Part shown: piece by piece, positions 9,625 through 35,197 of the stretch
How positions within the stretch are numbered: the first letter of the stretch is position 1
Layout: every line of letters begins with the position of its first letter
NCBI GenBank assembly: GCA_002633005.1
Contig: NMRA01000113.1
Span: 750,556 to 814,555, forward strand
Origin: Phoronis australis
Taxonomy: Eukaryota > Animalia > Phoronida
Direction of reading: 5' to 3'
DNA: 64,000 nucleotides
Made by a program: the position numbers and the translations under genes
The notes under the pieces: model-generated
The model's database searches: none
Seen by the model: the letters and a program-made list of their open reading frames with translations, nothing else
Told to the model about the DNA's origin: nothing

Positions 9625-9946
9625 GTAAAATGACTTTAAAACAATCACTCCAAATGTCTTTTATGACCTGTCTTCATATCATTTTGCATTAGTAGATTTA
9701 GTATCTAGCAGAAAGTACGTAAGCAGTGTGCAACAAAATGTGATTACATTGACTGCACCTGAGTCTCATCTTTTACTTAACTTGGACAAGCTCTAGTTAG
9801 ACGACACAATTTACTGTCCTAAAAGATCATCATGTGCTTTACACAGATTACAATTAACATTGTTAAGAGTAATGATGAATAGTGATATTAATTATCACTT
9901 TGGAAATGCTTGATATTCCACTTAATCAGGCAATGCATTTGGTTAA

Positions 9947-11026: not shown

Positions 11027-11116
11027 AGACATGGATTGTGGAAGGATGCTGATGAAATAGAGAATGACATTACTGTGGCCAGTAAGATGGAGAGCCGACC
11101 ATCTTCACCCATTCTG
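11027..11116 (+). CDS. Piezo: Piezo exon (RHGLWKDADEIEND...SPIL)
   Basis: Conserved GLW motif; tgtcag acceptor, gtgagt donor. Confidence 0.9.
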
Positions 11117-12143: not shown

Positions 12144-12295
12144 GATAGGGACTTTGCTGTTGACTCCACAGACAGTCAATTATCTCTTGGAGCAGATGCT
12201 CAGTCAGAGCAGCAGAAAATGGTTGTAGAGGCAGACGATAGCGTGGGTCAGGATGGCAACAGCAACATGGAAAAACATGCGACTAAGCGGGCCAA
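12144..12295 (+). CDS. Piezo: Piezo intracellular loop exon (DRDFAVDSTDSQ...KHATKRA)
   Basis: aacag acceptor, gtaagt donor; phase 0 to 2 as required. Confidence 0.8.
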
Positions 12296-13095
12296 GTAAG
12301 TGACTAATCAGACGTAGCTAGTTCAAGTTACCTGACTCGTTTCAAATTTGGTGTGCCCCCATTATGATTTCTGTCATCGAGTGACACCTGGTGGCCATTC
12401 ATATATCACTATGGTCACCTGGAGTTCACAATGCATGCACCTGTCTAACTTTAAGTCGTGGTTTTTCACTTGTTTAAATAAATACACAAAACGTACTGAG
12501 AGTAGCGTAGCTGAAGTAATATTTCACGAGATATTATTCTGCATATCAACCGAAACCAAAGTATTTATCCCATACGCTTCGAATTGCTAAATTCCTTTCA
12601 TTTTTTCGGCATATTTTTTAATATCTCACTCAAACTGTTTACATGGCGGATCACATCCTATATGTATGTACTTGGGCATTGGGTTACAAGTTTTCTCTAG
12701 TAAAAGAAACAGTTTTAAACGTAACGACTTATTACTTGAAAAAAGATAACGAACTTGAAAACAATCATGGTAATTGTGCATTGAACTTGTAACATTTCCC
12801 AAAAATAGTTAAATAACAGCAATATTTGATATTGTAGTTACAGAGGAATCAACGCCTTAGCTGCAGGCGATGCAATATTTAGCAATTGATAACTGAGACA
12901 GAAGTGTTACATAATTAACTTTTGTTCCAGATGTTACCTTTGGGACCTGATTGGATGTTGAGTGTTATTTTTATTGCTGCAATTTTATTCCTATAGACTA
13001 TTCTGGGAAAGTTTGATGATCAAACTGGCTAACGACATTGAGTTGACATTGACCTACCTTTTGAACTGTTGAAATAGTGTAGGAGGGAAATGCGG

Positions 13096-13260
13096 AAAGC
13101 AATATCAAATGGCCATATTGCACTTGACTGATTCAACGCGTATGGGATAAAAGCAATATCAAATGGCCATATTGCACTTGACTGATTCAACGCGTATGGG
13201 ATAAAAGCAATATCAAATGGCCATATTGCCCTTGACTAATTCAACGCGTATGGGATAAAA
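13096..13260. repeat. 54-bp tandem repeat, 3 copies
   Basis: aagcaatatcaaatggccatattgc... at 13097, 13151 and 13205. Confidence 0.95.
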
Positions 13261-14619
13261 GGCATATGTTTCTAGTGGTTTTTAACATTGATGGTTGGTG
13301 GGAAGTGTTGCTATGAGCAATCACTATGTTGCACAAACCTTCAGTACCCAGATTCTCTCAACTTGTTGACTTGTTAGTGACTACGGTAGGTATAACTAAC
13401 ACATTAATTGTAACTTGTCATTACAACCCAGGATCATAATGGCAGTGAGGACGTGGTAAGATCTAACAGTATTCCATACTTGTTGAGATGTCAATACTTT
13501 AAGGTTTATACCTTTTATGTGCCTATTTAGGTCCGTGTGCTTATATTTGAAATGATGCGTTCTTTCGAAAAAATTTTGTCTATTACTAAGTGTTTTTGCA
13601 TACTAGGCACGTATGCCTAAGCTTCAATTAAATACGCACGCTGCTATTCTTTCTTAAGCTCAGTGTTTTTGTTGGTATTTTGCTCGTTTATAATACCTTG
13701 TTGTTGTTAAACTGAACACATGTTGCCAACATCTACCTTTTAGTAGCAGACAAGTCATGTTGCAACCCATAATATTTAAAAAATTTGCTTTTCTGTTTTA
13801 CGATGAGCGTTTCACATTTACTTAAGGCACTAGGGCCTAACTCGGGGCATATACGGTATTGTCATAGTCACACTTACAAATGAACCATCACCTTAATGAA
13901 AGCCAGTCATCTGAACAGTGCTAGTTTGGTTGTGGAATGTTTCATTGTGTGGCTGTTAGATGCCATGGAAATGCAATACATGGGTCTTGATCTCACGATA
14001 TAGGTTTATTTTATCATCACTCCAACCTGCATGACCTATGACACTGGTTGCACACAGGGGAGCAGTATTGTCTTGATGCAAGAATTAGGTGTCTTCTCGA
14101 TAATGTCACTGAAATCCTACTCAGCAGATTTCTCTCATGAATTCACAAGCTAGTGATAATTTCGATTTGATTTTTGCTTGAAATTTATTTTGGTGAAATC
14201 TCCCCAATTATGGAGAAAATAATGCCTAAATTGATCTGTGTAGTATTTTGAAGTTCTTGCTTTCTAGTGAATACCCACAATTTCTCAAATGTCTTGAATA
14301 TTGCAATGGTGCAGAACATTAAAAATTGATAATTTCAAAAGCTTTTATTTCATCATGCTTTTTAGAAAAAATGAAGAACTAAAATTCTGCCATATTGTAA
14401 TTGTTGTTTCTTTTTAATTTGTGAGATTTTGCTGTTAATAGAATTTTAGACTTTAATTACTTTATATAGAAACCTTGTAAAATCTTTTATTACAATGAAT
14501 AATACAATTATTGACTTTCACCGATATTAGTATGTTGGTTTTCATGTCCCATAAATGTGGTAATAACCGAAACAGAATTATTATCTGACTTGTTACAGTA
14601 AGTAATTTGTGAAAGGAGA

Positions 14620-15070
14620 CTATGTTTGGGTTTTCGATTGTATGTCAATCTTTTGGTCAGTTAGCTAACAGTTTTTATTCCAAAGTGTTGTGAAAAGATT
14701 TTAATAATTCTTTGTTTTTATGAGACACAATCGACAATTTGGTTACATCAATGCTATGGCAAGCTGGATGTCCGCACACTCTATCATGGGTGGGACGGCA
14801 TCTGGGAATTTTCAGACGGATCCAACTTCTAGTTTGCCCTCCTGTGACAATTTTGTTTTTTATATTTGTCTCTGTATCTTCAGAGTTCCCATTAGGCAGA
14901 TTTTCATGGAATTTGACGAATTGGTATCTGTTAAGGATTTGATGCAGCCATCTCGTTTTCGGGTGGATTCAATGTACGCAGGACCACGTAGCGACTGTTT
15001 TACTGTTTTTGAGTATCTTTTTGTTGTGCACCTCTCTATCATTCAAATTGGGAGAAGGATGATTGTGAAA
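14620..15070 (+). mobile_element. Degenerate copy of the HINE/DINE-1-like repeat family
   Basis: Shares gattttcagacgga, ttttcatggaattt and aaggatgattgtgaaaatt blocks with other copies. Confidence 0.55.
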
Positions 15071-15915
15071 ATTGTGGTTATTTTAATTTTTACTATTATT
15101 AAATTAACTGCATTTCTCCTATGTTTAAGCTATTGATTAACTCTTGTATCTGTGCTGTATGCGATGCACATGATGGGGTCATGGGGTCATTTCATTGCCC
15201 ACACTGCACTTGTGATATTTTCCTGAAGCTAACAGGAATAGAATCCTATCTCAGTAAGGAACACTATGAATATTATCTCATTATTTATTCTATCCATGTC
15301 TTGTTTGTGACACAGGAGTTCACATGCCTTAGTATGTTCATTAATTCTTTCCTTGACGTGTTTGTGATAGAGGGGTTTGGATACCTTATATTTGTATTGA
15401 TTTTGTTCCTGACTTGTTTGCAACATGGGTACACATACCCCAGTATGTGTATTCTGTTCCTTGTTTGCAGCACGGGTACACATACCCCAGTATGTCTATT
15501 CTGTTCCTTTCCTTGCTCTTGCCTTCTGGCACTTCTCTCTACATACTATAGCCTGTTTCTGTGATTGTATAAATTTAATGATCGCATGAAGTTCTATTTT
15601 TCTAAAGTCATTAATAATTGAACTCCTTTTGTCTTTATTTTTCTTGCTTTTAAATGCATTGTTGGTTAAATTACAATCATTGATGGGAGTCTTTTACATC
15701 AAGTCTTCATTATTTGCACTGCGTATGTTAAAAACAATTAAGTGCAAAATAATGTCTGAAATTTTTACATCCTTCATGATGTGCCAAGCTGGGTTCATTT
15801 ACATAGATGTACTTCTTTCTATCACAAATTTCCACATTTCACTTCCTAACTTCAGTCTGGTGCATTCATTCATTCCTGTGAGTGTTACTTGACTCTTGTG
15901 TCCGTGTGTTGTCAG

Positions 15916-16069
15916 GGTAAGAGACTGGACAAGCCCATTCAAGACTTTCTACAGACAGCTGACTCGTGAGGACTACAACACCACTACAGATGTCTATGCC
16001 TATATGTTCTTCTGTGACTTCATCAACTTCTTCATCGTTGTCTTTGGATACTGGGGCTTCGGGCCAGCT
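15916..16069 (+). CDS. Piezo: Piezo exon (PFKTFYRQL...TDVYAYMFFCDFINFFIVVFGYWGFGPA)
   Basis: TDVYAxMF and FGYWxFG motifs; gtcag acceptor, gtacgt donor. Confidence 0.95.
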
Positions 16070-16372
16070 GTACGTGATCTCTTCACTGTCGTATGACAGT
16101 AGATGATGTTGAGATTAAAGCTTTAAGTTTGGACAGTATACTAAAGACACTTTGAGTTTGTAACATTTACAGTTCTTTATAGAGTAAAACTGTGTAATCA
16201 TGTTGTGTAGTAAATAACAAAGTAAAAAATCAGGATAATATGCGCCTGCATTCTTGGGTGTTAGTTGCTCACATTTCATATTCTTCTTACCCCGGCCGAG
16301 GCGGAGACAGACCAGAACGGCCCATGGCTGTTCTTTAAGCAGCGGACATCAGGTGCTGATATGGGAGGGGTG

Positions 16373-16685
16373 GATTTGTTTCTATTGCGCCCCCTTTAGC
16401 TAATGGATCATAACATGATGATTTGTTTCTATTGCGCCCCCTTTAGCTAATGGATCATAACATGATGATTTGTTTCTATTGCGCCCCCTTTAGCTAATGG
16501 CTCATAACACGATGATTGTGTAATTTAAAGGGAACAGAACTGTTTCTATTGCGCCCCCTTTAGCTAATGGCTCATAACATGATGATTGTGTAATTTAAAG
16601 GGAAAAGAACTGTTTCTATTGCGCCCCCTTTAGCTAATGGCTCATAACATGATGATGGTGTAATTTAAAGGGAAAAGAACTGTTT
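16373..16685. repeat. Minisatellite with 47-bp and 70-bp units
   Basis: ctattgcgccccctttagctaatgg at 16382, 16429, 16476, 16546 and 16616. Confidence 0.93.
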
Positions 16686-17110
16686 TCGCTGTTTAGTAAA
16701 ATAAACACCTGGTCATCTTTGAAAGACATTTTTCTTGTGAATTACTTTTCCCACGCAAGTATTCACTGTCCATGGGACAATAGAAAGTGATGTAGGCCTA
16801 ATCAGACTGGTAAAGGGCTCGCATCTTGTTTCTACATTCACTTAGTAAACATAACGTCCTACAGCCTCTTGAGCAAAGACCGTGCAGGTTATTCATGTTT
16901 CCTCAAGGGGACTGAATGTAGGATCAAGATGTAGGCAATTTTGTTGGTTCATTTCCATCACTTGTTGTTAGTCCATGAACTGTACATACCTGCCAAGGGG
17001 ATTGTAATTACCTTAAATGGAAAAACACCTACATTATAGCTAGATATTTTACTGTTATTAAGGTAACTGATGCTTTCCCCTTTAAGTATTTGTACGTTAC
17101 TGTATTCTAG

Positions 17111-17155
17111 GAAGACCAGTTTGGTGACTTTAGGCGCTATGTAGCTGAGAACAGG
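17111..17155 (+). CDS. Piezo: Piezo 45-nt exon (EDQFGDFRRYVAENR)
   Basis: ttctag acceptor, gtaagt donor; phase 0-0; fills the position of PIEZO1 HSAATDITSSLSDDQ. Not in the ORF track. Confidence 0.82.
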
Positions 17156-17819
17156 GTAAGTAAAATGAGATAGAACACAATTATTTATATTACAAGCATA
17201 CACAGGCAATTTTGGTTCATCGTTGTTTCTCTTATAAGATTGATATCTACTGTTTTGATGAATGAATTCGTATGAAATGTATATTATGATGTAAGTGGTT
17301 TATAAGAATTCATGACAGTTATATTTATCAGACAAGGCTTATCATCAAACGTGTGTTTACATGCCTATACATGCGTATTCGTGATACACGCTCTTGATGA
17401 CTGTTCATACGATTGAGGAATTATGAGTTTGGGTTTGTAAATCTTGGCACATGCAGTATCTTTTCAACCAGTTTGAGGACTTTACAAATTGGTAGACAGT
17501 GGGATTTGTAACGAGTAATCTGGCTTTCCCCTGAAATTTCGTTTTTGTATTCACTGGGCTGTGTTGAGCCCAATGTTGTTATACCAAATAGGATGCTCAG
17601 GGCATTGAGTTTAACAACAGAATTAGAAAGTTAGTATCTCATTTTATAGACCACATATCTAATTTAGTTTCTTAGAAATTTTATTAACATGTGTGAGTAG
17701 ACATGAGATAATTTTGTCCATTGTTCCCTCAAGGAATGTAAAATGTTCCAACAAATGTTATCGTTTGGTATAATACAGTTTTTAACATTTTTATGGTGGA
17801 AAATTATATAATTAACTTG

Positions 17820-18612
17820 CTTTTATGAGCCCACATATTTATATAATATGTGGATGCATTATGCCGTCATCCCTGTCCATCTGTTTGGCGTCAGTCCAGC
17901 GTGCATCCAGCGCTCTGTCTCCAAAACTCTTTGATGTATGTTCTTGAAATTTTGCACCGAAGTCATGTGTTCGTTTCATGAATGGGACAACATGAGCGAA
18001 CTTTTGGATGGATCTGAGTACTAGTGTGCCCTCTAGTGACAATTTTAGTTTTTTACGTTTACCTCTTCATCTTCAATGGTCCTCGGCGAGTTTTCATAAA
18101 ATTCGGAATATAGTGAGATGATGCTATCCTCTCGTTTTTTGATGGATTTGAGGTGTATTTCGCTATCTAGTGGACATTTTGTTCTGTTTTTGAGTCTGCC
18201 CCTCTATCAAGCAAACCACTCTAAGGATGATTGTAAAAATTGGCATTTTTTACTCTGTCTCCTAAACCCACTGCAGAATCTTTACTAAATTTAGCAACTG
18301 AATTATATTTTATATGATGTTGACAACGGACAGTGATGATTTTCAGACAGATTCGACGAGCGCTGTGCTCCCTGGCAATTTCATTTTTTCCGTTTTTCCT
18401 TAGTTTCTATGAGGTTCTTGACAGATTTTTATGAAATATGGTAAATTGCTTTTTATTAAAGAAACGTTGGCATGTTCCCATTTTCGGATGGATTCGACGT
18501 ATTTTGCGCCATCTAGTGGCCATTTTTAGGATACAATTAAACACCCCTGGAAGCATACCGTTTGCAGTGCATTCGTGGGCACATTTTAATGCTCCTCTTT
18601 GCTCTGGTTTTA
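17820..18612 (+). mobile_element. HINE/DINE-1-like (Helentron-associated) non-autonomous element
   Basis: 5' tttttatgagcccacat, a gtcc-rich segment, internal sub-repeats, 3' gggcacatt...tgctctggtt; similar termini in other copies. Family assignment is inference. Confidence 0.6.
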
Positions 18613-19026
18613 GGTAATTGTTGGTAGTTTGTTATCTGTGAGCCAGTGAGAGACTGAAGTGTGTTGTTGATTAAAGTTATTTGTTGCACAATATGCCGTG
18701 TGGGTTAACTGTCAACCAATGGTAGCCTGACTGTGTGTTGGTGCGTGGAGTTTTTTGTTGAGCACTATAGGACATGTTTCGTCGACTTTTAAAATTGTAT
18801 GAAACGGAGTATACATTTTTAACCACAAATTTCACCTGGGAGCTAAACTTTATTTGTGCTGGTGCAAACTTCTAGGGGAGGGGTAGATCTCGATTATGAG
18901 GGATGTTTTTGAGAACAGCAATTATCTGCTTTGTGTAGATGGTTGAAACATTTTGACCTTATTAGTCCTCTATAGTTGTTGTTTGTTGATTTCTGTGTTG
19001 TATCACTGTCTTTCACCTGTTTCCAG

Positions 19027-19193
19027 ATCCCTGTTCCATTCCTAATCGTCTTGGTGCTCCAGTTTGCCCTCATCATCATCGACCGCGCCCTTTACCTGAA
19101 GAAGAATGTGACAGGAAAGTTCATATTCCACATCGCTGTCATCATCATCGTCCATGTTTGGGTATTCTTCATCCTTCCCATTGTGACTGGCAG
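19027..19193 (+). CDS. Piezo: Piezo exon (IPVPFLIVLVLQFALIIIDRALYLKK...FFILPIVTG)
   Basis: DRALYL motif; ttccag acceptor, gtaaac donor. Confidence 0.96.
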
Positions 19194-19744
19194 GTAAACA
19201 AGTGTTGCACACTCTACCTGGTTCTCTTAAACATACATTATTTTTTATTTCTTTTATACATTTATTGGCAATGAGAAAAACATTACAATACCACAAAAAG
19301 ACAAAGAACACCACAGACACGCACGCACACACACAAACACACACACGCATACCCAACAACTAATCCTCTTGACTGCTAAGAAAAACTGTTTCAAAGTTAC
19401 ACCATCTTTTTTGTATAGTCAGTAAAGCGGGTAACATTTGAATGAGAAAGACACGAGTTGAAGAGCCTTAGGTTTGTTTAATGGTTGGTGACGTAAGCGA
19501 TATCTTGATCTGTCAGTACTGCAAGTGTCATAACTGTTAAAAGGCCGACTGTCTTAAGTGTAATTTTTGGAGATACTGTTTTGTGGATGATAAAGCTCTG
19601 GGTGCTTGCACTGGGTGCTTGCACGGGGTGCTTGCACTGGGCATTATATGTTAACAATCAAATAAATGATGCAGCAATAAAATAAAAAAAGATTCAGTGA
19701 GGTAAAATGTGTAAAAAGTGTAAATATGTCTGATCTGTTTACAG

Positions 19745-19903
19745 AGAGTTTGCTGATAGCACGCCAGTGATCATCTGGTACTTTATCAAGTGTATCTACC
19801 TGGCTCTGTCTGCCACTCAGATCAGGTGTGGTTATCCAACACGTGTGCTGGGCAATTTCCTGACTAACAATTTCAACTATCTCAATCTGGTGTTATTTAA
19901 AGG
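19745..19903 (+). CDS. Piezo: Piezo exon (WYFIKCIYLALSATQIRCGYPTRVLGNFLT...LFKG)
   Basis: QIRCGYP motif; ttacag acceptor, gtgagt donor. Confidence 0.96.
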
Positions 19904-20080
19904 GTGAGTCCTCTTGTGGATATTCTCAACTTATAATGTGATCCAATTGGTCTGTTCACTCAGAGTTTCGGTGAATCGGGTACATAATATGTACTCCAAT
20001 ATGTGGTGGTGTGAAACAAATCGAACACTGATGTTTCTGATCAATGCTCATTGGTTGTATTGTGTCTTTGTGGGTTACAG

Positions 20081-20228
20081 GTTCCTTGTGATCCCGTTTC
20101 TGTTGGAATTACGGGCCCTGATGGACTGGATGTGGACAGACACTACTCTGGCGTTGTCTAGCTGGCTACAGATGGAGGATATCTTTAGTAATGTCTACGT
20201 ACTCAAGTGTTGGCGATGGTCTGAACAG
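20081..20228 (+). CDS. Piezo: Piezo exon: anchor with PFEW signature (PFLLELRALMDWMWTDTTL...EDIF)
   Basis: Family signature PFxxExxxxxxW; ttacag acceptor, gtgaga donor. Confidence 0.98.
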
Positions 20229-20440
20229 GTGAGAGTTGGCCCCATGGCAACAGTAGTGAAATTGTAGTTGGGCTGGTCACTGGACATTATACGGTTTATT
20301 TAGTTTGCCTAGGGAACTGGGTCAGTTCCTAAATTTATGCACCCACATAATATAATTATTCATGCATATTTTCATCTCTGTGTCTGGTGTCAAAAAGTAT
20401 CCAAATTTTCATTTCTTCTCTTTATCCCTTGGTGTTTCAG

Positions 20441-20626
20441 AAATATCCAACCCCACGTGGTCAGCCCCGCCGGGCGATCGTCAAGTACGGCTTTGGTGGC
20501 CTAGTGCTGTTCCTGGTTGTTTTCATCATCTGGTTCCCTCTCTTGTTGTTCTCATTCGCCAACGCTGTCTATGAGCCAAACCTTCCGATAGAGTGCAGTG
20601 TTGATATCTCTGTAGCCGGCTATCAG
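20441..20626 (+). CDS. Piezo: Piezo exon: outer helix (KYPTPRGQ...KYGFGG...IWFPLLLFS...GYQ)
   Basis: Conserved motifs; tttcag acceptor, gtaatg donor. Confidence 0.97.
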
Positions 20627-20925
20627 GTAATGGATACATTTGAATTGTCTGGCAATTGCGGAATTTTGCATGTAGTTGTTGAAGAATTGTTGCATTTGGA
20701 GGGTTTGATCATTTACTATCTGTCTGTTACAAGTGACAGTTATTTGTTAGCTGTCTATCCCAAGTTTCTATCTTTTATTAGCTGTCTGTTACAAGTATTT
20801 ATCATTTTCTTGTTGTCCTTCACAAGTGTTGGTCATTTTTTAGCTGTCTGTTACAAGAGTCGGTCATTTGCTAGCTGTCTGTTCCAAGTGTTTGTCATTC
20901 ACAAGTGTCTATCATTTTTTACCAG

Positions 20926-21033
20926 CCTCTATTCACTCGGGTCACCATGGCAGGAGACATCACCACTTATACTACAAAACAATACCAAGACCTCCAGAAT
21001 AAAGTGACATCGCTGTCTACTCCGGCGGATGTG
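20926..21033 (+). CDS. Piezo: Piezo cap exon (PLFTRVTMAGDITTYTTKQYQDLQNK...ADV)
   Basis: Continues GYQ|PLFT as in PIEZO1 GYEPLFT; accag acceptor, gtgagc donor. Confidence 0.88.
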
Positions 21034-22199
21034 GTGAGCTTGGCTTTTTGTACTATTTATTTTTAGCTAGCACGCAAGTTCTCTTTCTTCACCGTTGTCA
21101 CCTTTCTGTGACTTTGTACTCAAACTGTTTGACTGCAAGGTGGATACCTGTTTAAGGTTTAACACTCGTTAATTAATCTATCAAACGGGAAACTCTTGTT
21201 GCAGTCAATTTAGACACGAAATGATCTTGAAATCATGCTATGTCAATGTTTATTTGTCATGCTGTTGGAACCTCAGCTGTGTTGACCGGTATTTGTCATG
21301 AATTCTCATGAAATTAATTAAAAGTGCAAATTTCATCATTTCCTATGACGTACAACTACTTCAACAAAACAGTTTATGTTATATAATAATTTCGGAGATC
21401 TTGTGTTGTTGTTTACTATGTCACTGACCAGTGCCCACTCATAGTGAAACCCTATATGCCAAACAGCTGTCCAGACTTCATTCATGTTTATGGGTGGGAT
21501 GAAATCACCGGAACTCTCAATATTGTTGTTGTTTTGCCCTCACAACCCACACATATTTCTATTCACTATATATATTGTAGCTAGAGTTAATAAACTTTGT
21601 GTGTCAGTAGAAACTCAACCACTGTGTTAGTTTTTATGCTGCTCTCCATCGACTTGCTGTTGCTACCTTGTTAGCCAACTATCTACCGTTCAACCAAGAA
21701 CCGGGTAACCCCAACTATACTACCACGACCATCCCCACACTAGTGGAATCCGTGTCTCTACATTGCTGATATCTCCAACAGTATTTCCTAGTAGTACACT
21801 GCGTCAAGAACACTTTATTGATGGTAACAGGGAACGAATGTGGGTCTGACAATGTACGTAAACTATTTGAAATGATTTTTTAATAGACAGTACAGTTTCA
21901 TGGAAGTCATGTTAGCCTTCTTTGTTCGTGTACTCATTTTCTCAAAATTTAAGAAATGTTGCTGTGAAAGGTTTGGCTAGCATCAGTAAGGTGTGGTGTA
22001 CTTAGAGACCGTCACTGTAATAGCTTAAACTAACTGTGACTACCTCTTGATGAGTGTTTTTTTTGCTTTCACTTGCATGAAATTCAGGCCCGTCGCGACC
22101 GCCGGGACTGGCACGAACATAAACCAGCATGAGTTGGAAACTAAACCTCCAGTCACAAAAAGACTATAATAGTGAGCCACAGAAATAATGTGCACGTAA

Positions 22200-23119
22200 T
22201 TATTTATGTGAAGTAGCCATGAAACTGAAAATCTACCTACTTGTCGGGGGCTGCGAAGTCTGGTTCCCCTTCCACAGACCGTCAGGGCAAAGGTTGTACA
22301 GTAACAATGATTTGAATAATGTATTTGTATTTCTAAATAAGGATTCCCCTAATATGTAACTATAGCATATAAAATCGACACAACAGCTTTCTGTCAGTAA
22401 ACACTAAATTAGCATGCACTCACACGGCCTCGGTGCCCGGTCAGTTAGGTTTCAATTGTTGCATCTTAAGCCGGTAACGCAGTAGTTTATTCATTGCTGG
22501 CTTCTCAACATTTGCACTCACGAATACTGCAAAGCATTACAAAGTGTATCTAATGAGACAGACTTTGTTTCAGTTTTATATAAGTATTGGTTAGGATGAG
22601 AATAATTCATTTTGAAACAGAAAGCAGAATAATAAAGTTTACATGGCAACTCGCCCGGCGCCAATCCTGACTTAGTCAAAAGCTCACATCCGACGAAGAC
22701 ATCACGGGTCGGATTGTTAGTTTTCACAGGCTATCAGTTCAAACTGGAATACACTGATCAAGAAATACTAGAGAGGCGGAGATGTTTCATGGCCTCATAC
22801 TTGCTATTAACAGCGTACCTTACATTCTTCACTACCGCGAGCCACTTACTTAGCATTTCGGGCTCTCGAGGAAGTCGAAAAAACGATATACCCGCTTTCT
22901 TCGCAGCTTCATAGTTCAGACAAGCAAGAACCGATACACCGCAATATAGTGGCACTAACTCTGTAGACGAACCACTGACGTCGCTGCATCGCTTCTCACC
23001 TTCCTCACAGGTTAACGCGACACCTCTCGGCAAGGTGAGGTCGACCGTATAAGAGGCGATGTGGATATAGACCGATTAAGATGGTAAAAAAGACTAATTA
23101 AATCGGGTGGCATTCTCCT
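22200..23119 (-). mobile_element. Degenerate THAP-encoding DNA transposon remnant (Kolobok-like); left boundary uncertain
   Basis: Minus-strand ORF 22758-23033 has CGV..C.N...GISFFRLP...KW (THAP-like, decayed C-terminal C/H); terminus reads TTAA-AGGAGAATGCCAC on the minus strand. Confidence 0.65.
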
Positions 23120-23805
23120 TTAAGTTAACCTAAAAATGGCATCTGGGAAACAGGTTAACATGGCTCAAATGAATTATAGAAACAATTGAAAATGGTCACA
23201 CACACACACATAGTTTAGCTCCACAATTACAAGTAATTTTCTTGAAACATTATGTAAACACACCTGTTATTAGCATTTAAACTTTTCATTTATAATTGCC
23301 GAATCAACACTCAAAAAGAAAATGTCGCATGAATTTAACAACCAAAATTTCTTGATGAAAAACTCCCATCCTGCTGTTTGACAGGCTGTTGAAACTGGTT
23401 CTAAGACTGGAGCTGAAAATTTCAGAGGCCAACTATTCCTGGCATCCAGCCATGGCCGCAGGTTGACCAGTGTAATTCTCAGGTGTGAAGAGAAATCGTT
23501 GTCTGGAATAATTATTGAACCTGAAGAGTCTCGCTTGATGAGCAATTATAACAAAATGAAAGTGAGGCAATGAAATTAGACTTGATTTGAAAACTGCAGC
23601 ACTCGATCCGAACCCAGTCGAGCTTGCAACCAGTAATTCACTGCGCAAACACTTGCAGGTAGTCTTGGAGCCGCAAGGTCTAACAATAGGTCACATGCAG
23701 CAGTTGGCATTCCAGGGAAAGAGTTCTATACTAGGACAGACGAATATTTTCAAAACTTGCTCACTAGGTCAAATTTTTGCCGTGAGGAATTGTTGTTTTC
23801 ATTAA

Positions 23806-24191
23806 AGGTATATTTGCCTGCTCCTAACTATGCTAATGTTAAGCAGGAACTAATCAACAATGATATTTTTACATCTTGTACGCTTAACAGAGAGCAGCTG
23901 TATTCATAGACAACTTGTTAATGTGAAAACAAAAACCTCTTCAAATAGGTGATCCTTGCACTAATGACATACCTTGGGGGCTCACATAACCCGCATCATG
24001 CAGTGTTATTCCCCAACACCACGTCATAAAACTTACTGGACACGGTCGATCATTTTTGACACAAAACTCGTTCTGAAAAACATTTGGCAATTTTCAACAT
24101 ACTTCATATTCACATCATTACTATATGTTGTGTTTCTAGCTAATTTGACCAAGCAGTCACAGAGATAAGGTTTTCACATGCTAATTCCACT
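23806..24191. mobile_element. Non-autonomous TTAA-type element, same family as 8020-9032
   Basis: Begins TTAA|AGG; collinear similarity to both ends of the 8-9 kb copy. Confidence 0.65.
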
Positions 24192-24417
24192 ATAATTTTA
24201 TTTTTATTGAAATCGACTAAGAAATTAAGTAAAATACAGTAAATTGCTTACGAACGCCAACAAAGGTAACATTTCATTGGAAGTGTTGCGTTTTTTTGAA
24301 TTTCTATTCTCATCAGGTGCAAACTGGTGGTGGCGCTGCTCAATGCTGTCCACCTAATGCTCTATTTCCATGCTTATTTGGCAACTCATGGTTATTGCAT
24401 TGTCATGCTTGATACAG

Positions 24418-24593
24418 GCTCGTGCCAAGTCATTCCTGTCTACTTACGAAGCCCGAGACACGGTGCTTATTCGAATGAACGGCAACTCTACAGCTGTCTG
24501 GGGCATCAGCCCTCCTGCTGAACTGCAACTCAAGCTGGACATGGCTGACTCGAACAAGAGAATGCAGTTTCTAGTGGACCTCTCTTTCACAAG
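24418..24593 (+). CDS. Piezo: Piezo cap exon (ARAKSFLSTY...GNSTAVWGISPP...FTR)
   Basis: WxISPP motif; tacag acceptor, gtgatc donor. Confidence 0.93.
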
Positions 24594-26812
24594 GTGATCA
24601 CTGCTCATTAGATGGTAGCTGTTGTTTAGCTTACTCTCTGGTATTGCACTCGTTTAAAGCCACTGTGTTTGATTCTTCACCGTTGATGTAGATGTTACTG
24701 CCAGACATTGAATGTTAAAAGAAATTCCTTTTAAAGTACAGTACAGTACAAGATGAGAGTAATCAAAGTACCATTTTCCTGCTGTTGCGGCTAATTTTGT
24801 TGACAAAGAAACACTGATAACTGATAAATATTAGGGCCTCAAATTGCTCAGGTCTAGTCTAATTACTAACTTCCCTGTTAATTCCCCTTCATACTTAGTC
24901 ATCAGGGGAGACTACTCTTTCAATGAACTTGGCTTGTGTCCATACTGTGAATAATACCCTTACAAGGAAAACATGCATTTCTAAAGATATTTTCACCACT
25001 TGTCCTTCTGAGTGGATTTTACCAGAATCAAAGAGAGCACGGCACCGCAGTCGGATACAGTTGTGATGACCACATTGTCTGGTGCGAGCAAGACCCCATG
25101 AAGTGTAATCGCCTGACCATTAACTGTTATGTAGTAAATATTCTCTGCCTGAACATACTGGCGAATTTCCAAAATGCATTAGCCAATAATATAATTTTTT
25201 TTAAAATGAATACCTCGGTGGTATTCAGCTGAAAAAAACAACCTGGTATGGTTTTCAATTTTTTATAATCAATAAACTGATAGCTAAAAGCGAAAAACAT
25301 TGGGTACGATTGAAGATAAAGTACCGTGCGTATTGATATACTCGATGGATTTACAAACACTGATTATATAACAATATCACATGGATTATTCTTTTGATAT
25401 TCTTTCAATCTTGTTTAACCATATTTTTGACCAGGAAACAGTAATGTACTTTACTTGTGCCCACTTTTCATTTTTATGACTGACAAAAAGCTTAAAATAG
25501 TTATGTAGTCAGTGCGACCGAAATTGTCCACAGATTCCAAATCTTGAGTTTGTCTATCACCATATTTGGTTTTTTGTATATATTCATGATTTGAGGTCTA
25601 ATAAAGATTAAAATTGGAACTGATGACATGCAGGGACTCATCTAGGATTTGAAAAGTAGGTGTCCAAATTTGTGGGATTGATGTGACGCGAAGCGAGATT
25701 CTGAGGTGCGCAGCGCCAAAGGGGGGGGGGGCTGGGAGTGGGGGGTGTCCCCCCTCTTGCTGAGGGAAAATTGTAATTTACATAAAATAGGTCATTTTCC
25801 TTCCATTGTAGCACACTGTTTGTTTTTTTTTTCTTGTTCAAAGGATGACAAAGAAGGGAACAAAACAAACATTAAAAGGTTTGTCTCATTCAGGAAGTTT
25901 GTATTGTCACCAGACTGCTGCGAGATGCCAGCACAAACAACGAAAAGGGATAACACTTCCATTGAATAGGGGTCTGAATAGAACACCATTGTACGGTGTG
26001 CGAGTGTTATTCGCAGCTGTTTGAATAAAAGGTGATTCTCACCGTGACGTAAACAAAAGCAAGCCTATACGCCTAACATTTCGTTACATTTGGCAATTAG
26101 TGACACTGGTGGGCTCAGAACAATGCTCTTAACATACTGTAGGAACCAAATTTACAGATGTTACCATTCAAGATAGGCTTTAAGCTGGATTTAACCCTGT
26201 TTAGTTGTCACTCTAAATATATTTTGAGTTCTTAACCGAGGCATTTCAACTGCGTAAGCAACCCTGAACTTGTGTCAAATGCGCCAGTAAGTAAAGTTCT
26301 TAACATTGCACACAAAGCAGGGCAACAGAGTATCTATCAAGAGATTTTCTGTTTATCATCTCCTCGTCATCTTTATAACCTGTTGTCATAAACATGACAA
26401 GTCACTAAATATTAAGTAAATTGGTATCATGCAGTTTTATGAACACATGAATATGGTCAGTATTTTGTCACCTGACAGGTGTTTTGAATAGAATCCTCAT
26501 TGCCATTTTCCAATTTCAGGGTTGATCAAGCCCGAAATCATTGATTTTTGGACAAGTTTTTTTTAGACCAGTTTTACAAGTCCAGAGTAAATGGTTTGAT
26601 TTTCTTTTTTAGCCAAGTAAAGCAAAAAGTGACGTTAACTGCTGATACTATAACACATTCTTAAGTGCGGAGTATCTTGTAATAGCAGTCATTCCTTCTT
26701 TTTGGTTGTTTAATAACAATCATGTTTCAAAGTTTATAAAACTATCGTGATGTTTGAAGGTGATGCCAAACTATGCTTATCAAGAATTTGTACTATTCCC
26801 TTTTCTTTGCAG

Positions 26813-26929
26813 AAAACAGGAACCTGGGCTAACTCAGACGACGACTCGTGTACAGCTTTCTGTGGACATCAATGAGGAGAGGAGGAAGATCTTCTTTGAT
26901 CTGTTGAATAGAACATCTAAGGACTCTGT
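26813..26929 (+). CDS. Piezo: Piezo cap exon (KQEPGLTQTTTRVQLSVDINEERRKIFFDLLNRTSKDSV)
   Basis: tttgcag acceptor, gtaagt donor; phase 2-2; resembles PIEZO1 RRQLASLLEGTSDQSV. Confidence 0.88.
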
Positions 26930-27350
26930 GTAAGTGATCTGTTGAGCAGAACACCTCAGAACTCTGCGTAAAGCGATCTGTTGAGCAGAATGTCTCATGA
27001 CTCTGTGTAATCGATCTGTTGAGCAGAATATCTTAGGTCATTGTGTAATCGATCTGTTGAGCTGAACATCTTAGGTCATTGTGTAAGCGATCTGTTGAGC
27101 AGAATATCTTAGGTCATTGTGTAAGCGATCTGTTGAGTAGAATATCTTGGGTCATTGTGTAAGCGATCTGTTGAGTTGAATGTTTTAGGTCACTGTGTAA
27201 GGTGTAAGTGCTAGGGTGAACAGAATATCTCTGGACTATTTGTAATTGATATGTGCAAGTGGTTTGTTCAATGAAAACATCATGGCTCTACGTAAGTGCT
27301 CTGTTGAACACGTCTCGGGATTCTGTGTAAGTGATCTGGTGAACAGAATG
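26898..27350 (+). repeat. 38-bp minisatellite made of the exon 3' end plus splice donor
   Basis: First unit gatctgttgaatagaacatctaaggactctgt|gtaagt, then ~7 clear copies and several decayed ones. Confidence 0.9.
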
Positions 27351-27565
27351 TTTCGGGGTCAAACTGTTGTTTTTTACTATGAACTGTATGTAGGATACAT
27401 CCCTTTACAAGCACTGTGGGACAGAAGTGTTCATTGCTCATATTAGACTGTTCACAAGTTGAAATTAGCTGTAGAAAAAGTACTACAAAGCCTGTAACAC
27501 TGTGTACACACAATGGTTTTGTTCTCCTTCGACCTTTTGCAATGTTGATAATTGCTGTGTTGCAG

Positions 27566-27639
27566 GAATATTACAGACCTCATTCCCCAGTTTATCCAGA
27601 TCCCAGTGTCCAATGTACCAGTCAATGCTAGTAATCAAT
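27566..27639 (+). CDS. Piezo: Piezo cap exon (NITDLIPQFIQIPVSNVPVNASNQ)
   Basis: ttgcag acceptor, gtaagt donor; resembles PIEZO1 IPNLFPKYIRAP. Confidence 0.87.
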
Positions 27640-27813: not shown

Positions 27814-27973
27814 TACGTATTGAGCGTGATCAGTCCATCACGCTGAACCTAAAGCAGCAGCAAGGCTTAGAATGGTGGGAGATCCGTACTGATGAGAGTA
27901 TCCCCTCGTTTGAGTTCACAGCCTTCAGTGATCGTATCGCTCCTGGTGCTCTCGTCTTCTTAGCTGGATATGG
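27814..27973 (+). CDS. Piezo: Piezo last shared exon (...LEWWEI...FSDRIAPGALVFLAGYG), phase-2 donor
   Basis: EWW, FSD and FLAGYG motifs; tttcag acceptor, gtaagt donor. Confidence 0.96.
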
Positions 27974-28115: not shown

Positions 28116-28310
28116 TGTAGTTTGTAAACAGAAGGAGCAAAGGTGAAGTTGAATGATAATATGCATGAATTTGGTTACAACAATGTGTTTTGAGCATCAC
28201 CCTGAATACTGCAAGCTCTGGGGTAGAGCCTGGTGCTGGACTATAAATGTGTAAGAGGGTTATGGTAAGTTTCAAATCAAGTGTTTTCTGAACTGGACAC
28301 CAGTGCTCTA

Positions 28311-30230
28311 TCTCCAAAATCTCTTGATGTATGGTCATGTGTTCCTTTCATGGATAGGGCAGCCTGAGTGAAGTTTTGGACAGATCCGACTACCGGTGTG
28401 CCCCCTAGTAGCAATTTCAGTTCATACAAAAAACATTTTCTTCTATCTTCAAAGGTCCTCAATGGATTTTATGAAATTTGCAGATAGGCATCTATTAGTA
28501 ACCCATTTTCCAATGGATTTGAGGTATTTTGCGCCACCTAGTGGCCACTTATACTGTTTTTGGCCTCTGCCCCTCTGTCAACCAAACCACTGTGAGGATG
28601 ATTGTGAAAATTTGCATACATGTTCCTACTGTGAAGAGGATGGTTGACAATGATTTTCTGACAGCTTCGATGACTGTGGTGCCTATAGTGGCAGTTTTTT
28701 GGGCCCGTAGCTCTATCTCCTAAACCCTTTAGAGGATCTTTATTAATTTTAAGAACTGAAATAATATGAAGTTGATGACGGACAGCGACGACTTTTTGAT
28801 GGATCCGACAAACGCTGTGCTCCCTAGTGGCAATTTTATTTTTTTCCATTTTCCTCGGTTTCTCTGAAGTTCCTTGATGGATATTTATGAAGTTTGGTAA
28901 ATAGCTTTCTATTAAAGAAATGATGACATATTCCTGTTTTCTGATGGATTTGACATATTTTGCACCATCTAGTGGCCATTTTTACTGTTTTCTAGTCTTT
29001 TTTGGTGTCCGCCTTGCTAACAACTTTAAGGATGATTTTGAAAATTGGCATTGATATTTTTACTTAGAAGAGGATGGCTGATGATGATTTTGGGAAGACT
29101 CAGACTACTGTGACACCTCCTATTGGCAGTTTTTGCGTCTATGGCTATATCTCTCAAACTCTCTACAGCATTTTTTCAAATTTTGCAATGGACTACTGCT
29201 GTGCTCCCCTAGTGGCAGTTTTATTTTTTTGTTTTCCTCTCTATATTTGAAACTCCTTGGTAGATTTTTATGAAATTTAATGAATAAATTTGTATTAAAG
29301 AGTCGACAGGTTCCTGTTTTTGTATAGATTCGACCTTTAGTAGCTGTTTTTATCATCATGAAATTTTTCAAATAGGTTTCTATATGCTTGAAGGATCATT
29401 ATTAAAATTTGGAGATGCGATGAGAAGACTGAGGCTGACGTAGATTTTTGGATGTGTTCAACTACTCTGCTCCCTCCCCCCAGTGGCAGTTATATTTTTG
29501 CGTCCACTGCTGTATCTCCATTACCGTTTGCAACATCTTTTAGAACTTAACAAGCAGATGTGTTCCTTTGGAAATGGCCAATTTCAAACCAATCCAAGTA
29601 CAGCGGTGCTCCCTAGGGGCAATTTTATTTTTTACGTTTGCCTGTGTTCTTTGATGCTTTTTCATGAAATTGGGCGAATAAATTTATGAAGACGACAGTA
29701 TCTTTCCTTTTTTTTGATGGATTGGATGTATTCTGCACCAACTAGTGGCCATTTTAATTATTTTTAGTCTTTGTTGTCTGCCAAGCTTCGCAGAGGATCA
29801 TTATGAAAGTTGGCAGATATGTTCCTACTGACAAGAGCATGTCTGACATGGATTTTCAAACAGGTCCAACTACTGTGGTGCCCCCTAGTGACATTTTTTC
29901 GCATCTACTGCTGTATCTTCTGAACCCCTTGCAACACGTTTTTGAAATTTTGTAATTATATTCCTATTTCCTTTTCAGCAGATAGATGGATTCGACTACT
30001 GTTGTGACTCCTAATGGCAGTTTTTTTACGTTAGCCTTTGTATCTTTGGGAGTGCTTTGATGGATTTTCATAAAATTTGGCAAATAATTTTGAGAGACAA
30101 TGACACCTTCCCATTTTGATGGGTTCATGAACCATCTAAGGCCATTTGTATTATTCAAGTAAACACCCCTAGAAGTACAGTGTTTGCGGTGCATTCATGG
30201 GCGCATTTCAACACTCTGCATTGCTCTTAT
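28311..30230 (+). mobile_element. Long HINE/DINE-1-like copy with internal sub-repeat array
   Basis: Repeated ctagtggc/ccctag blocks; 3' end aaacacccctagaag...gggcgcatttcaa...ttgctcttat matches other copies. Confidence 0.7.
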
Positions 30231-31658
30231 TTACAATACAGTTTTGTTTTTGATCATACACAGATATGAACTGAGAAATTGCCTGTCCATCAGCACGCTC
30301 GCATTCCTCAAAATTCACAAATTTTTCCAAGACTGTCCGCCAGTCCCTCTGTCCCCAGCTTAATATCAAAATACGCAATAAGTCTTGCCAGTCCGTCGTC
30401 GCTCTTAAGCTCATCTAAATAGACTTCATCAACCACCTGTTCGCAAATACCACATGCACCCTCTGCCAAAGTCAACGTCACAGCTATACCACATTACTGT
30501 TTGCCAAGTCTCGTGACCTCATTCCACGCTAGCAGTTCTTGTTTTAATGCTCATAGCACTTACTTGAATGGTAGTCTAGAATATTTATTCTCATTGACAT
30601 TGTTGAAATAACACCTGCTAGATCTACAGCCGTTGTAATTGCTCCACTACCAATTGTTAACACTCAGTTTGCAAACAAAGGTGGCTGTCATACAAACATA
30701 AATTTGTTATTAACGCACAATTAACGATCAAACATGGCTGCACGCTCGACTCTATTCCGCGTAGCGGTCTATACAAAAACTAACAAGCCAAGTATCTTAT
30801 TCATCAGGTTGTGTTGTTTCTTTCTTTGTTCACACGTTACAGGTCACATTTCTTCAACATAAAGTTCACAGACAACATGTGTCTCGGCAATAGTTCGAGG
30901 TCTGGGGTTTTTGCTGGAAATTTGCCCCAAGGTAGCAGTGTAGTAGCAATTTTTTTATTTTTATTGTGCATGGCAGAGCTATACAGCTCTTATGTTTGAG
31001 GAAGGATTTTTGTGAAATAAGGTATGTGTATAAATCTCAAGCTCAGCATGTGTTTTGTCTTTCATTGTATTGGTACCACTTACCGTTCTCGAGTTATTTA
31101 AAATTTTCTATCCCTGCTGTTAAATTTATTAATTTGTATCATATCTCTGGCGTCCCATGACTGGATCTTTCTGAAATTTGTTATGTGTATAGATCTTGTG
31201 AACCACCATGTGAATTATGCCATCTGTTTTTCACTCCAAGTTATCGTTCTTGAGAGATTCAAAATTCAGTGGTCATATGATAATAAGAATCGCTTGCTCG
31301 ATCATCATTATTCTGTAGATAAACCTCATGACCTGTCTGTATTATTTCACCGCTTTCTTGCTATGACTTAGTGTTCTCAAGATTTCCGGATTGTTCTTTT
31401 ATTGACTGATTCCAGCAATTCGCCTTTGTTGGTTTGACATCAAGTGTGTGTACGCACCTCAAGTAGCAGGGGCTTCATTGATTGCTTTTTAGGACAGATT
31501 TGCTTATGTATACATGATTTTGAGTCAACATTTATGGTGTATGTGGATTACACTAACTTATCTTCTAGTACATCTTTTTTCAAAAATACGTGGTAGCAGA
31601 ACTAGAATCAGCTGACCTTTGCTTGACCTGCACACTCAGTTGTAATACCTTCTTTCAG

Positions 31659-31923
31659 CATCGTTGGTCTTTACGTATCATTAATTCTTGTCGCCAGTCG
31701 CATGTTGCGAGTTCACTTCAAGGGCATACTTCACTCCATCATGTTCAAAGAGCTTCCTGTTCCTGATCGTGTGTACAGTCTGTGCCGCGACATTCAGCTG
31801 GCAGGAGAGTTGCGGGAGCACCACTTGGAGGAGCAGCTGTTTGCCCAGCTCTTGTACATCTATAGGTCACCTGATACTTTGATATACATATCCAGAGAGA
31901 GACCGGAGTTGAGGACAAGTTAA
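31659..31923 (+). CDS. Piezo: Piezo alternative terminal exon A: divergent inner helix + CTD (IVGLYVSLILVASRMLR...MFKELP...YRSPDTLIYISRERPELRTS*)
   Basis: ccttctttcag acceptor in phase 2; 87 sense codons with no stops or indels relative to exon B. Confidence 0.88.
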
Positions 31924-33294
31924 ACAGTAGGCATACAGCCACAGTAGCACGTTGGCTAGCATGACATTTAGTTTGGAGGAATTTTGAAGCTTCCTTTCTG
32001 TTTCAGATAGCGTGCTTGGCCAAACTGATGATTTGGTTGAATTCTTTTGCAGATCATGCAATAGCCTGTTGTGTTTGTGCTGTCTTTGTTTGATATGATA
32101 TAGTTAAACCAATTTAATCCCATGCTTCACTTCCTGAACTCAACAAATGGCTCTTGGTCGGTAGTCTCAAGTGCCACTAGTTTGAAGGCCATTAGTCTGA
32201 CCACAAATTTAAAGTGTCTAGTGTAAAGCATTACAACTAACTCCTGTTTGTATTCCAACAGTCAGGCCAGATGTCAATATTTCTTTTGTTAATTACCTGG
32301 TTCAGTCTTTTGTCCAATGTCATGATGTATATGGCAATTATTTACCACCTGAATGATTGTATACATTAATGTAAGCATACAATTGAAGCCTAGATCAACT
32401 TTGGAGTTATAAAAGGCTTATAGTAACCTGGATCTCTGTAAAAATTAGTACTTTGCTAAATAATGTAACAGGTTTTGAAAAATATGGTTTCATAGGTTGT
32501 CAGTTAGTACTAATTATATTCTTGTTGAGCTGTAACCATAGGTGTTGAAGGTGGCCAGTTACCTTAATAGAGCTAAAATGAGACAATCTGTGAAAACCAA
32601 GAAGGGAATTCTACCTCTGCTCACTTCTAAGGTGGGAGTTATGAGCTGAGTTGCCATGGGAGCAGACATTAATTGTCAAAGTTTACCTTCTACTGAACAT
32701 GGCTATTTAGTGACATTCAACTACATTCCTTTCAGTTTCTCATGATAGTTTTGTATACACATTGATTATTCGACTTGATGTTCATTCTTTGACAAAGTCA
32801 GTCACACTACTCAGTTTAATTATTTAGACTTGTCTGTGGATAAGTGTAATGTCCCATAGTTTATGCCTCAAGTTTTGCGTTTTACATAGATTTGCTTCTA
32901 TTGTTTTGAAGATTTAATAGGGTTCCGAATCCAACATTTTTGTGACGAATTTCAACAATCTTATTACCTTAAGTTCATTTGCAAGTGTGTGTAATTGTGC
33001 AATGGAAAATTTCATTTGTTGTATAAATTAAGCATACCGACTGTATTTTCATTGTATGTCATGGCAATGAATTGTACCCGTTGTCAGGGTGCTACTGGAG
33101 AGATTATTAATATTTGTGGATTTATGCTCCAGTGCTAATGTAACAGATGATATTAATCTTTTTCAGTCTTGGGGTTCTGGAATTGCAATCTTATGGCTTC
33201 ACCATTTTTGTGCAGATTTTTAAAAGCTTTATAACAGAGGCTGTTATTCACTCAAAGCCATTGGTTTAATGTGTTGTCCTTAACTACATTTCAG

Positions 33295-33553
33295 AATCAT
33301 TGGCTTGTATGTGTCGCTGGTATTTGTCGTGGGCCGATTCGTGCGGACCATCACTATGGGCCAACATGCTTACGTCATGTTTGAAGAGCTGCCATGTGTT
33401 GATCGTATCTTCAGTTTGTGTCGGAAAATCTACTTTGTGCGTGAAAACCGCGAGTTCCAGCTGGAGGAAGACTTGTACGCCAAGTTAGTCTACTTGTATA
33501 GGTCGCCACAGATGTTGATCAAGTGGACTTGTGCTAAGGAGAAACAAGAGTGA
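33295..33553 (+). CDS. Piezo: Piezo alternative terminal exon B: canonical-like inner helix + CTD (IIGLYVSLVFVVGRFVR...MFEELPCVDRI...YRSPQMLIKWT...*)
   Basis: catttcag acceptor in phase 2; 85 sense codons closely matching the PIEZO1 C-terminus. Confidence 0.95.
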
Positions 33554-35197
33554 ATAGCTGCCTGAATGTAAAATATTATGTGTCTGTAAGAAATTTACAG
33601 TGGCAGTGATGCTAGTTCATCTACCACATTGTTTGAAGCTTACATTTGAGCCCAGGGTTTGAATATGTGCAGGTGTAGCTTCATTTGTTGGTGTGTTACT
33701 GGGAACAGTTCAGTGAGGATTTACTCTTTTATATTGTGGCATTGACAAATTAACATTTGGGGATAAGCTTGTTCCATATTTATATATGAATTGTATTACT
33801 GAATCAGTTGCTTAACAATTGACTACTAACTATAAATGAATGTGGGTACTTATACCTTAGGTAATATTGAGACATTTGGTCAATAATTGATCACTAACAA
33901 GTAATAGGGGTAGTTAATTGTTCAAGTAATGGGTACACCAAGTGGTGGCTGATTACGAAAGGGTTCATTTTGTAATCCTTGGCATTAAATGTGGAATTCA
34001 TTGCTCTACTAGCAGCGCTTCATTTAAATTTTAGGAATTGTCATGGTCATTCAGTAAACAATTACTGGTGTTATTTTGAGTTGTATTCAACAAAATCATT
34101 ACTGAGATATTTCAATGCATGCTAGTTGTCTGTGAAGCAAACTAGAAAGTGTTTTTGATATTCTCCTGAAGATTTTATTGCATATTTATTTAATAATTCT
34201 GTCCTCTGATTGTCAAAATAACTTCCGTTATGAAGTGATGTCGATTGGCCAACCGTGGAATATCACTTTTCATTCATGCCGCTCTGATGTCAGAGGTCAC
34301 CATTGGTGACCTGACCAATTACAGTTGTACATTCCTTGTTATTAGCTTTTATTTTACAACAATCATGGAGTAGTAAAGGTAGAATAACCGAGATATGCTT
34401 TGAGGTGATAACAAGCCTTTCATCAAAGATATAGTATACATCTTTGCTTTCTTACCAGTCATACTGTTTAATCAACATTTTCCACTAACACCGAGTGCTA
34501 CCAGCTGATGTCAGTTGCTAGGCTGAAGTGCATGTTACTTGTGAATATCATTTTGCTATATCACGTTTTCATGTCTCCGTGGGACTGGTGCAGTAATTTC
34601 TGTAAACCTGCTACTTTTTCTGTTATCAATTTTGTTTTGAAGTATACTGCACAGATTACTGAGAATAGAACAAGTATCATATGGTGGCCATTCTTGTTTA
34701 TATTTTTGGTCTTGACACAAAAATTACCTGGAGCCACTTCAGGTCTCCAGTCAATACAAACATTACCTCGGGTCAATGTGAAAAACAGCTGTGCCATGTT
34801 GAGAGGAACACGTTTCATGTCTCTAGATATGTTGAATAAAATATCACGTAATCCCGAGACAGGTGGTACGAGTGATTCGTACATATTGAAATACACCCTT
34901 AGTCTTTTTAATGAACAACTTGAGTTTCGTTTCTGCCATTGGATGACCAACAAATTGAGCAATGTCATTTTTGGGTTATTGGGGAGTTAATTGGTTTTTA
35001 TGTAGTCTTTGCCATTGCAGAGTACCAGTGTTCTTTTTTTGCCTGGATATTGTCATGGTTACCACATCTGTGTGACCAGGAATGCCTGTGTTCTACTCTA
35101 CTGTTTTTGTCCAGTTACTCTCTTTAATTCTAGTACCCAGTGTTCATACATTGGCAAGACCTAACAAACCTGATTTATAGTATTGGACCTCCTTCAC

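Follow-up and report, generated by a model that had tools for sequence, protein, structure and literature searches.

Two tandem exons of a Piezo gene in the phoronid Phoronis australis each encode an inner helix and C-terminal domain (CTD), and they probably give rise to two Piezo subunits that have an equal blade and cap and different pore linings. In this reading, the subunit ending in the upstream exon (exon A) is a minor form, probably restricted to certain samples. A channel built with exon A is predicted to be less selective for cations and calcium than one built with the downstream exon (exon B).

Tandem pore exons in a phoronid Piezo gene

The DNA analyzed here, referred to as the window, is a single 64-kb stretch whose + strand contains the 3' half of a Piezo gene (Table 1). 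In a gene tree of 515 shared columns, the window Piezo falls in a clade of molluscs and brachiopods (96/99), beside Lingula (90/84, not starred). The upstream anchor, outer helix and cap exons stay open in frame once joined and are common to both forms, with the inner helix and CTD being all that differs between the two ends. The joined cap is clearly shorter than that of Lingula or Owenia, and one cap exon has probably gone unrecognised or been lost in 24594-27565, where no convincing candidate was found.

Table 1. Piezo exons in the window, with the basis or main property of each
Feature	Position	Strand	Basis or property
Shared Piezo exons (anchor, outer helix, cap)	9055..27639	+	tblastn with lophotrochozoan Piezos
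Shared exons 1-4	9055-9307, 9436-9624, 15917-16069, 17111-17155	+	tblastn; edges of 9055-9307 and 15917-16069 are +/-1 nt
Shared exons 5-8	19027-19193, 19745-19903, 20081-20228, 20441-20626	+	tblastn
Shared exons 9-11	20926-21033, 24418-24593, 27566-27639	+	tblastn
Last shared exon (cap end, FLAGYG)	27814..27973	+	phase-2 donor GG|GTAAGT; RNA-covered
Exon A (inner helix + CTD copy 1)	31659..31926	+	87 aa; stop TAA 31921-31923
Exon B coding part (inner helix + CTD copy 2)	33295..33553	+	85 aa; TGA 33551-33553
Exon B 3' UTR	33554..34400 and beyond	+	continuous RNA depth to 34400

A first-pass annotation, made from the sequence alone, had described a shared exon ending in FLAGYG with a phase-2 donor at 27973, followed by two in-phase pyrimidine-CAG acceptors, and these coordinates are correct in the sequence. 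The acceptors, both TTTCAG, end at 31658 (A) and 33294 (B) and complete a Gly codon in phase 2; that of exon A scores inside the range of the gene's own acceptors. The same annotation had held that each exon is a full inner helix and CTD with its own stop, and indeed both align without gaps to mouse Piezo1 from residue 2466 (2466-2547; E=1.6e-22 for A, E=1.2e-28 for B). All matches in the search with exon A (15/15), and likewise in that with exon B (15/15), are Piezo. Homology to the solved structures of mouse and human PIEZO1 and PIEZO2 (PDB 6bpz, 5z10, 6kg7), with which both exons align ungapped over 2466-2547, places the predicted A and B peptides in the Piezo family.

Exons A and B are neighboring, homologous and equal in acceptor phase, as expected of a tandem duplicate. 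Their ungapped alignment has 39 of 85 residues identical, and the codons differ at 24 of these 39, in agreement with the earlier description of the pair. Silent sites are near saturation, with pS 0.67 and pN 0.34 over 78 codons. By tblastn, no upstream Piezo exon is duplicated and no third copy of the inner helix and CTD occurs anywhere in the window; self-comparison of the window also upheld the claim that no other exon is duplicated.

The window holds several features besides the Piezo exons. An open frame of 1066 aa at 63999-60802 (-) contains motifs that we take to be endonuclease- and reverse-transcriptase-like; it and two further fragments, 45962-45204 (-) and 44535-43408 (-), are presumably typical of non-LTR retrotransposons. 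A dispersed repeat family, with copies of 65-80% identity in both orientations, occupies 14784-15074, 17821-18610, 28304-30233, 38985-40431, and 55548-57766, and copies elsewhere are abundant in RNA. The copies at 28304..30233 lie in the intron before exon A, are non-Piezo-coding by self-blastn, and show high cross-mapped RNA depth at 90-95% identity. Tandem repeats are found at 1-486, 26898-27254, 27719-27810, and 27973-28115, two of which adjoin the splice sites of the last shared exon. Finally, a 316-bp direct duplicate at 35110-35742, 99% identical and flanking an N, is probably a gap-edge assembly artefact.

Use of exons A and B in RNA

RNA was available as one contig set (X1) and three stranded same-species raw-read runs (X2-X4), the three coming from one study; 18-19% of each of X2-X4 was read, and a joint was listed from 3 reads upward. 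The junction 27973>33295, which skips A, is present in 4/4 runs (one contig and 25, 22, and 30 reads), so exon B defines the main isoform. In the stretch 31215-33434, which is free of repeats, a single joint was listed: 31926>33295, which connects A to B across GT..AG borders and has 4 reads (4 starts) in X4 but none in X2 or X3. The first-pass annotation had named 27973>33295 and 27973>31659 as the junctions to look for. The former was recovered throughout, but the latter, which would lead from the shared exon into A, is not listed in X2-X4 at the 3-read threshold. Unexplained partial reads at the entry to A number at most 2 each in X3 and X4, with none in X2. Given an expected mean of 4 reads into A, the probability of 2 or fewer is 0.24.

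Read depth in X4 is 7.8 at the 3' end of exon A, 0.7 just past its donor, and 48-59 in exon B. Depth over exon A in X2 and X3 is not above intronic background, and the X1 contigs leave A uncovered. Inclusion of A is thus at most about 11% in X4 (4/36) and undetected elsewhere (0/43; Fisher p=0.039). Sense-strand reads of the same species extend over A and the surrounding intron, mostly at 99% identity, and no variant or indel is listed among the exon A reads. The exon A donor (ACA|GTAGGC) is weak, ranks 29th of 118 GTs, and lies 3 nt past A's stop; 4 of the 118 GTs are within 50 nt of that stop. Because the donor is in use though weak, and with so few GTs near the stop, recognition of A as an exon fits better than random noise. 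Exon B has variants at 33370, 33490, and 33531, two of them silent and one a Cys-to-Phe change near the C-terminus that is confined to the X1 contig.

Given the A>B joint and the lack of a hexamer between the two exons, A behaves as a cassette exon with its own stop, and B as its 3' UTR. A hexamer scan found no AATAAA or ATTAAA in the 1371 nt from A's stop to B, where a non-canonical site is possible, and located an AATAAA at 34835, a candidate end of the exon B 3' UTR. We therefore rejected A as an alternative last exon with its own poly(A) site, because it has neither hexamer and is spliced to B in 4 reads. The first-pass description of two terminal exons holds in that A ends the coding sequence, but A is no plain last exon, being spliced onward at 31926>33295. 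Strictly mutually exclusive exons were rejected as well, because the A>B joint puts both in one RNA; A and B are exclusive at the protein level only.

Skipping of A, by the splice seen in RNA, yields blade, cap and B, the main protein. When A is included, we propose, the transcript would run from the shared exon through A to B, translation would end at A's stop, and B would become 3' UTR; of this path, the A>B joint has been seen. Junction-dependent nonsense-mediated decay follows a 50-55 nt rule, and with just 3 nt between A's stop and the last junction, an mRNA that includes A should be spared.

Relatives, origin of the pair, and constraint on exon A

HMMER with exon A gave 593 protein matches at E<=0.001, of which the best 150 of 593 are listed. 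Word-index protein searches with exon A gave no matches at near or longer lengths, and an Atlas search with exon A gave bacterial clusters only, under 0.9. Among the records listed, both ends are annotated isoforms after an equal phase-2 junction in 6 of 16 species, namely Octopus bimaculoides, Lingula anatina, Haliotis rufescens, Pomacea canaliculata, Magallana gigas, and Dreissena polymorpha. For Octopus vulgaris there is an A isoform as well as a gene model that fuses A and B, and the remaining 9/16 species have a single end among the records listed (<=15 per cluster). Gene models from Mya, Solemya, and Octopus vulgaris in which the two ends are fused place A before B, and at the DNA level a tandem A then B is found in 2 of 13 metagenome loci, L006 (bivalve-like) and L012 (annelid-like). 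L012 also includes the shared exon, and the remaining 11/13 loci carry a single module. The A-type and B-type labels were assigned by us from motifs.

A conserved A/B pair across relatives is therefore well supported, and the search for a tandem pair in related genomes that the first-pass annotation had called for succeeded both in isoforms (6/16 species) and in contigs (L006, L012). The mollusc and Lingula Piezo isoforms in RefSeq/GenBank come from one gene with two ends after an equal phase-2 junction, A before B, as in the window; two-ended isoforms are thus already in public gene models, without comment. The earlier idea that one blade can be joined to two pores stands for the relatives, where two ends are annotated from one gene, but in Phoronis the junction into A is unlisted.

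The way in which the upstream exon ends may differ between lineages. Poly(A) hexamers lie between A and B in L006 and L012, and an annelid-like transcript (L002) lacks B and has its 3' end behind an A-type exon. In relatives the two may therefore be genuine alternative last exons, and the cassette may be particular to the Phoronis window. We considered donor-like GTs after the A stop in L006 and L012 as a sign of conserved cassette architecture and rejected them, since they are weak and also occur after a B-type stop (L007).

Module trees were built from 62, 32, and 38 rows of 82 columns, the 32-row set being the 62 minus unnamed, long or redundant rows; the second module of L012, as joined, carries one surplus residue at its intron. 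The A-type ends of molluscs and Lingula form one side of a branch, supported at 91/99 with Lineus in the 32-row tree and at 76/80 in another tree. The AU test rejects a clade made of the two ends of one species, both in Octopus (p=0.001) and in Lingula (p=0.036), so the duplication is older than those lineages. Window A sits on a long branch, with no placement in any of the three trees. Neither its union with the A clade (p=0.42) nor that with its own B (p=0.11) is rejected, and since B inside the A clade is not rejected either (p=0.52), the AU test has low power here. The mean identity of window A to mollusc A-type vs B-type ends is 36.9 vs 36.9 of 81, and its diagnostic columns are 4 A-like, 4 B-like, and 1 conservative. 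Window A fits the A type by its 5' position in the pair and its non-acidic residue at E2495, and the case for its orthology to mollusc A is built upon the orthology of the genes, the order of the exons, and the E2495 state.

Judged by gene orthology and exon order, a single duplication early in lophotrochozoans is the most likely source of the pair, and A has since evolved fast in the Phoronis lineage. It is unlikely that exon A, while functional, instead arose by a separate duplication in the Phoronis lineage and converged on the mollusc arrangement, a question that concerns its origin only. The AU test does allow a clade of window A with window B, and tandem inner-helix duplications in rotifer and stick-insect models indicate that such an event can recur. 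However, the exon order and the loss of an acidic E2495 are equal to those of relatives, window B is nearest to Lingula B (68%), and the species-level pairs of Octopus and Lingula are rejected.

Other variants of the Piezo end were seen in more distant sequences. In annelid-like B exons (L011, L012, L013) an intron interrupts the sequence after VDK, close to the split position of the insect exon. The records of Lineus (P0268), Ornithodoros (P0138), and Seison (P0144) have one Piezo end each, in which E2495 is replaced by Arg or Lys, and 7/7 of the Lineus isoforms compared have the Arg/Lys-type end at this position. Two stick-insect models (Timema; P0006, P0082) have two tandem inner-helix half-exons (to VDRILQ) and one common CTD exon, and a termite model (Cryptotermes isoform X4; P0239) has a non-canonical inner helix; these models suggest separate, mutually exclusive inner-helix exons in stick insects and the termite. 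In the rotifer Didymodactylos carnosus, a model (P0002) contains two complete inner helix and CTD modules in tandem. The two modules are joined in the tree (96/80), although one has a very long branch, and this hints that they were duplicated independently.

To gauge constraint, exon A was set against a conservation profile of 60 other Piezo modules. It keeps 23 of 28 highly conserved columns (25 in B) and matches 4 of 22 variable ones. These counts bear out the first-pass view of an old duplication in which both copies are constrained. The profile score is 126 for A and 175 for B, and neutral-decay simulations, started from six sequences and stopped at A's identity, gave mean scores of -5 to 91 (p<=0.012). 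Because A scores above these simulations, which are blind to a recent loss of function, most of its divergence accumulated under selection. A pseudoexon, other than one due to a recent loss of function, was rejected, as there are no stops, no frameshifts, and no evenly spread divergence over conserved sites. The exon A branch is 2-3 times as long as that of B, and A has lost V2513, R2514, and W2542 (R2514G, W2542I); the hydrophobicity of its inner helix is kept. Exon A is fast-evolving and, given few RNA reads, likely functional.

Predicted pore properties, alternatives, and meaning

A predicted difference between the two ends concerns E2495. None of the 18 A-type ends is acidic in this column (12 Arg, 2 Lys, 4 neutral), in contrast to 9/14 acidic and 0 basic among B-type ends; in the window, A carries Lys and B carries Glu. 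The available parts of two papers place E2495 and E2496 along the intracellular fenestration, with a bearing on cation selectivity, calcium permeation and conductance (PMC7796548, PMC7815867). E2495 is also one of nine positions in the anion-selective PIEZO1 9K mutant, as far as the accessible text describes it (bioRxiv 2024.08.23.609388, PMC7815867). Lys at E2495 is common to 9K and exon A, but 9K has nine substitutions whereas exon A changes just one of these positions and keeps E2496. With six of the nine positions located in the shared anchor, and with E2496 unchanged, we predict a shift in selectivity, not a reversal or full anion selectivity. Lys at E2495 together with Lys at 2486 would place more positive charge at the intracellular lateral portals, and gating or the packing of the CTD would be affected by the substitutions of F2480, R2514, and W2542. 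L2475, V2476, 2479, and R2482 are inactivation and voltage residues in the available portion of PMC10531961; all four positions, of which 2475 and 2476 form the gate, are kept or conservatively changed in exon A as in exon B, and B has Phe at 2475. Mixed A/B trimers are plausible.

Three other accounts of exon A need to be weighed against the two-pore reading. It is rather unlikely that the pair, though ancient and functional in relatives, has become a relic in Phoronis as regards exon A, which would have died recently or be under relaxed selection. The A>B reads would then reflect leaky splicing, or intermediates from which the upstream intron had yet to be removed. A relic would account for the long branch, the loss of the near-invariant R2514 and W2542, the weak donor, the unlisted junction into A, depth near intronic background in 2/3 runs, and the 9/16 species with one end among the records listed. 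Yet the frame of A is open, its acceptor is in phase, 23/28 conserved columns are kept, its reads contain no listed variant or indel, and its donor is used directly past the stop. A made but poorly conducting A subunit, acting as a modulatory or dominant-negative partner in mixed trimers, or whose inclusion mainly lowers B output, is improbable. Low abundance and heavy CTD divergence, including R2514G and W2542I, would fit this, and inclusion of A necessarily costs B protein from that transcript, but the inner-helix hydrophobicity and the gate and voltage positions L2475/V2476/R2479/R2482 are kept, and the A-type ends of relatives are highly conserved and often the commonest annotated form among the records listed. 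It is extremely improbable that exon A is an artefact of assembly or belongs to a second Piezo gene. The absence of a listed junction from the shared exon into A would be expected of either, but an identity of 46% and near-saturated silent sites exclude a haplotype echo, same-species reads cover A and its intron and join A to B, and no other exon in the window is duplicated. We therefore retain as probable the reading in which two subunits differ in their pore linings.

The vertebrate PIEZO records compared have one inner helix and CTD module, whereas Phoronis has two alternatives, with Lys in place of E2495 in A. In the available text of PMC12490864, the Piezo1.1 and Piezo2 splice variants tune conductance, calcium permeability and sensitivity, and heteromers are proposed. 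The variants described there skip lateral plug or loop exons, and none swaps the pore-lining helix and CTD, in agreement with the first-pass statement that known vertebrate variants affect loops or the lateral plug and not the pore. The nearest analogy to the Piezo A and B ends is the pair of C-terminal variants Shaker A/B of Drosophila, whose alternative 3' ends differ in the tail and in a residue of the pore-lining helix, form heteromers, and shift inactivation 100-fold, according to the accessible sections of two papers (PMC2223370, PMC9868669). Shaker is, however, an unrelated tetrameric Kv channel in which, in those sections, the effect is on inactivation and clustering, whereas for Piezo A a change in portal charge is predicted. 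We found no description of alternative Piezo pore exons in the open literature, subscription papers and supplements aside, and the available parts of three invertebrate papers (PMC12919962, PMC7992859, PMC8367381) contain no mention of them. Channel pores varied by duplicated alternative exons are a known kind of arrangement; the Piezo pore case is old, real, and apparently undescribed.

More tentatively, a lophotrochozoan Piezo splice switch may predate the split of molluscs, brachiopods and annelids, swapping the inner helix and CTD and flipping the charge at E2495 from Glu/Asp to Arg/Lys. Such a switch could conceivably choose between a calcium-permeable cation channel and one that passes less calcium and more chloride, and mixed trimers would be intermediate. 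The Phoronis version of the switch would then perhaps be a decay-escaping, stop-carrying cassette, and similar swaps may have arisen independently in insects and rotifers.

Piezo pore function has so far been mapped almost solely by engineered mutants and PIEZO1/2 chimeras. A natural two-pore pair on one blade, found in several phyla and differing at a selectivity residue, would be a ready-made experiment on selectivity, conductance and inactivation. Because the A and B isoforms would share one 3' UTR here, 3'-end single-cell data would be blind to the difference between them. In molluscs, brachiopods and annelids, the pair predicts two kinds of mechanosensory signal per Piezo gene, and a Piezo probe or clone from these animals should not be taken to stand for a single channel.
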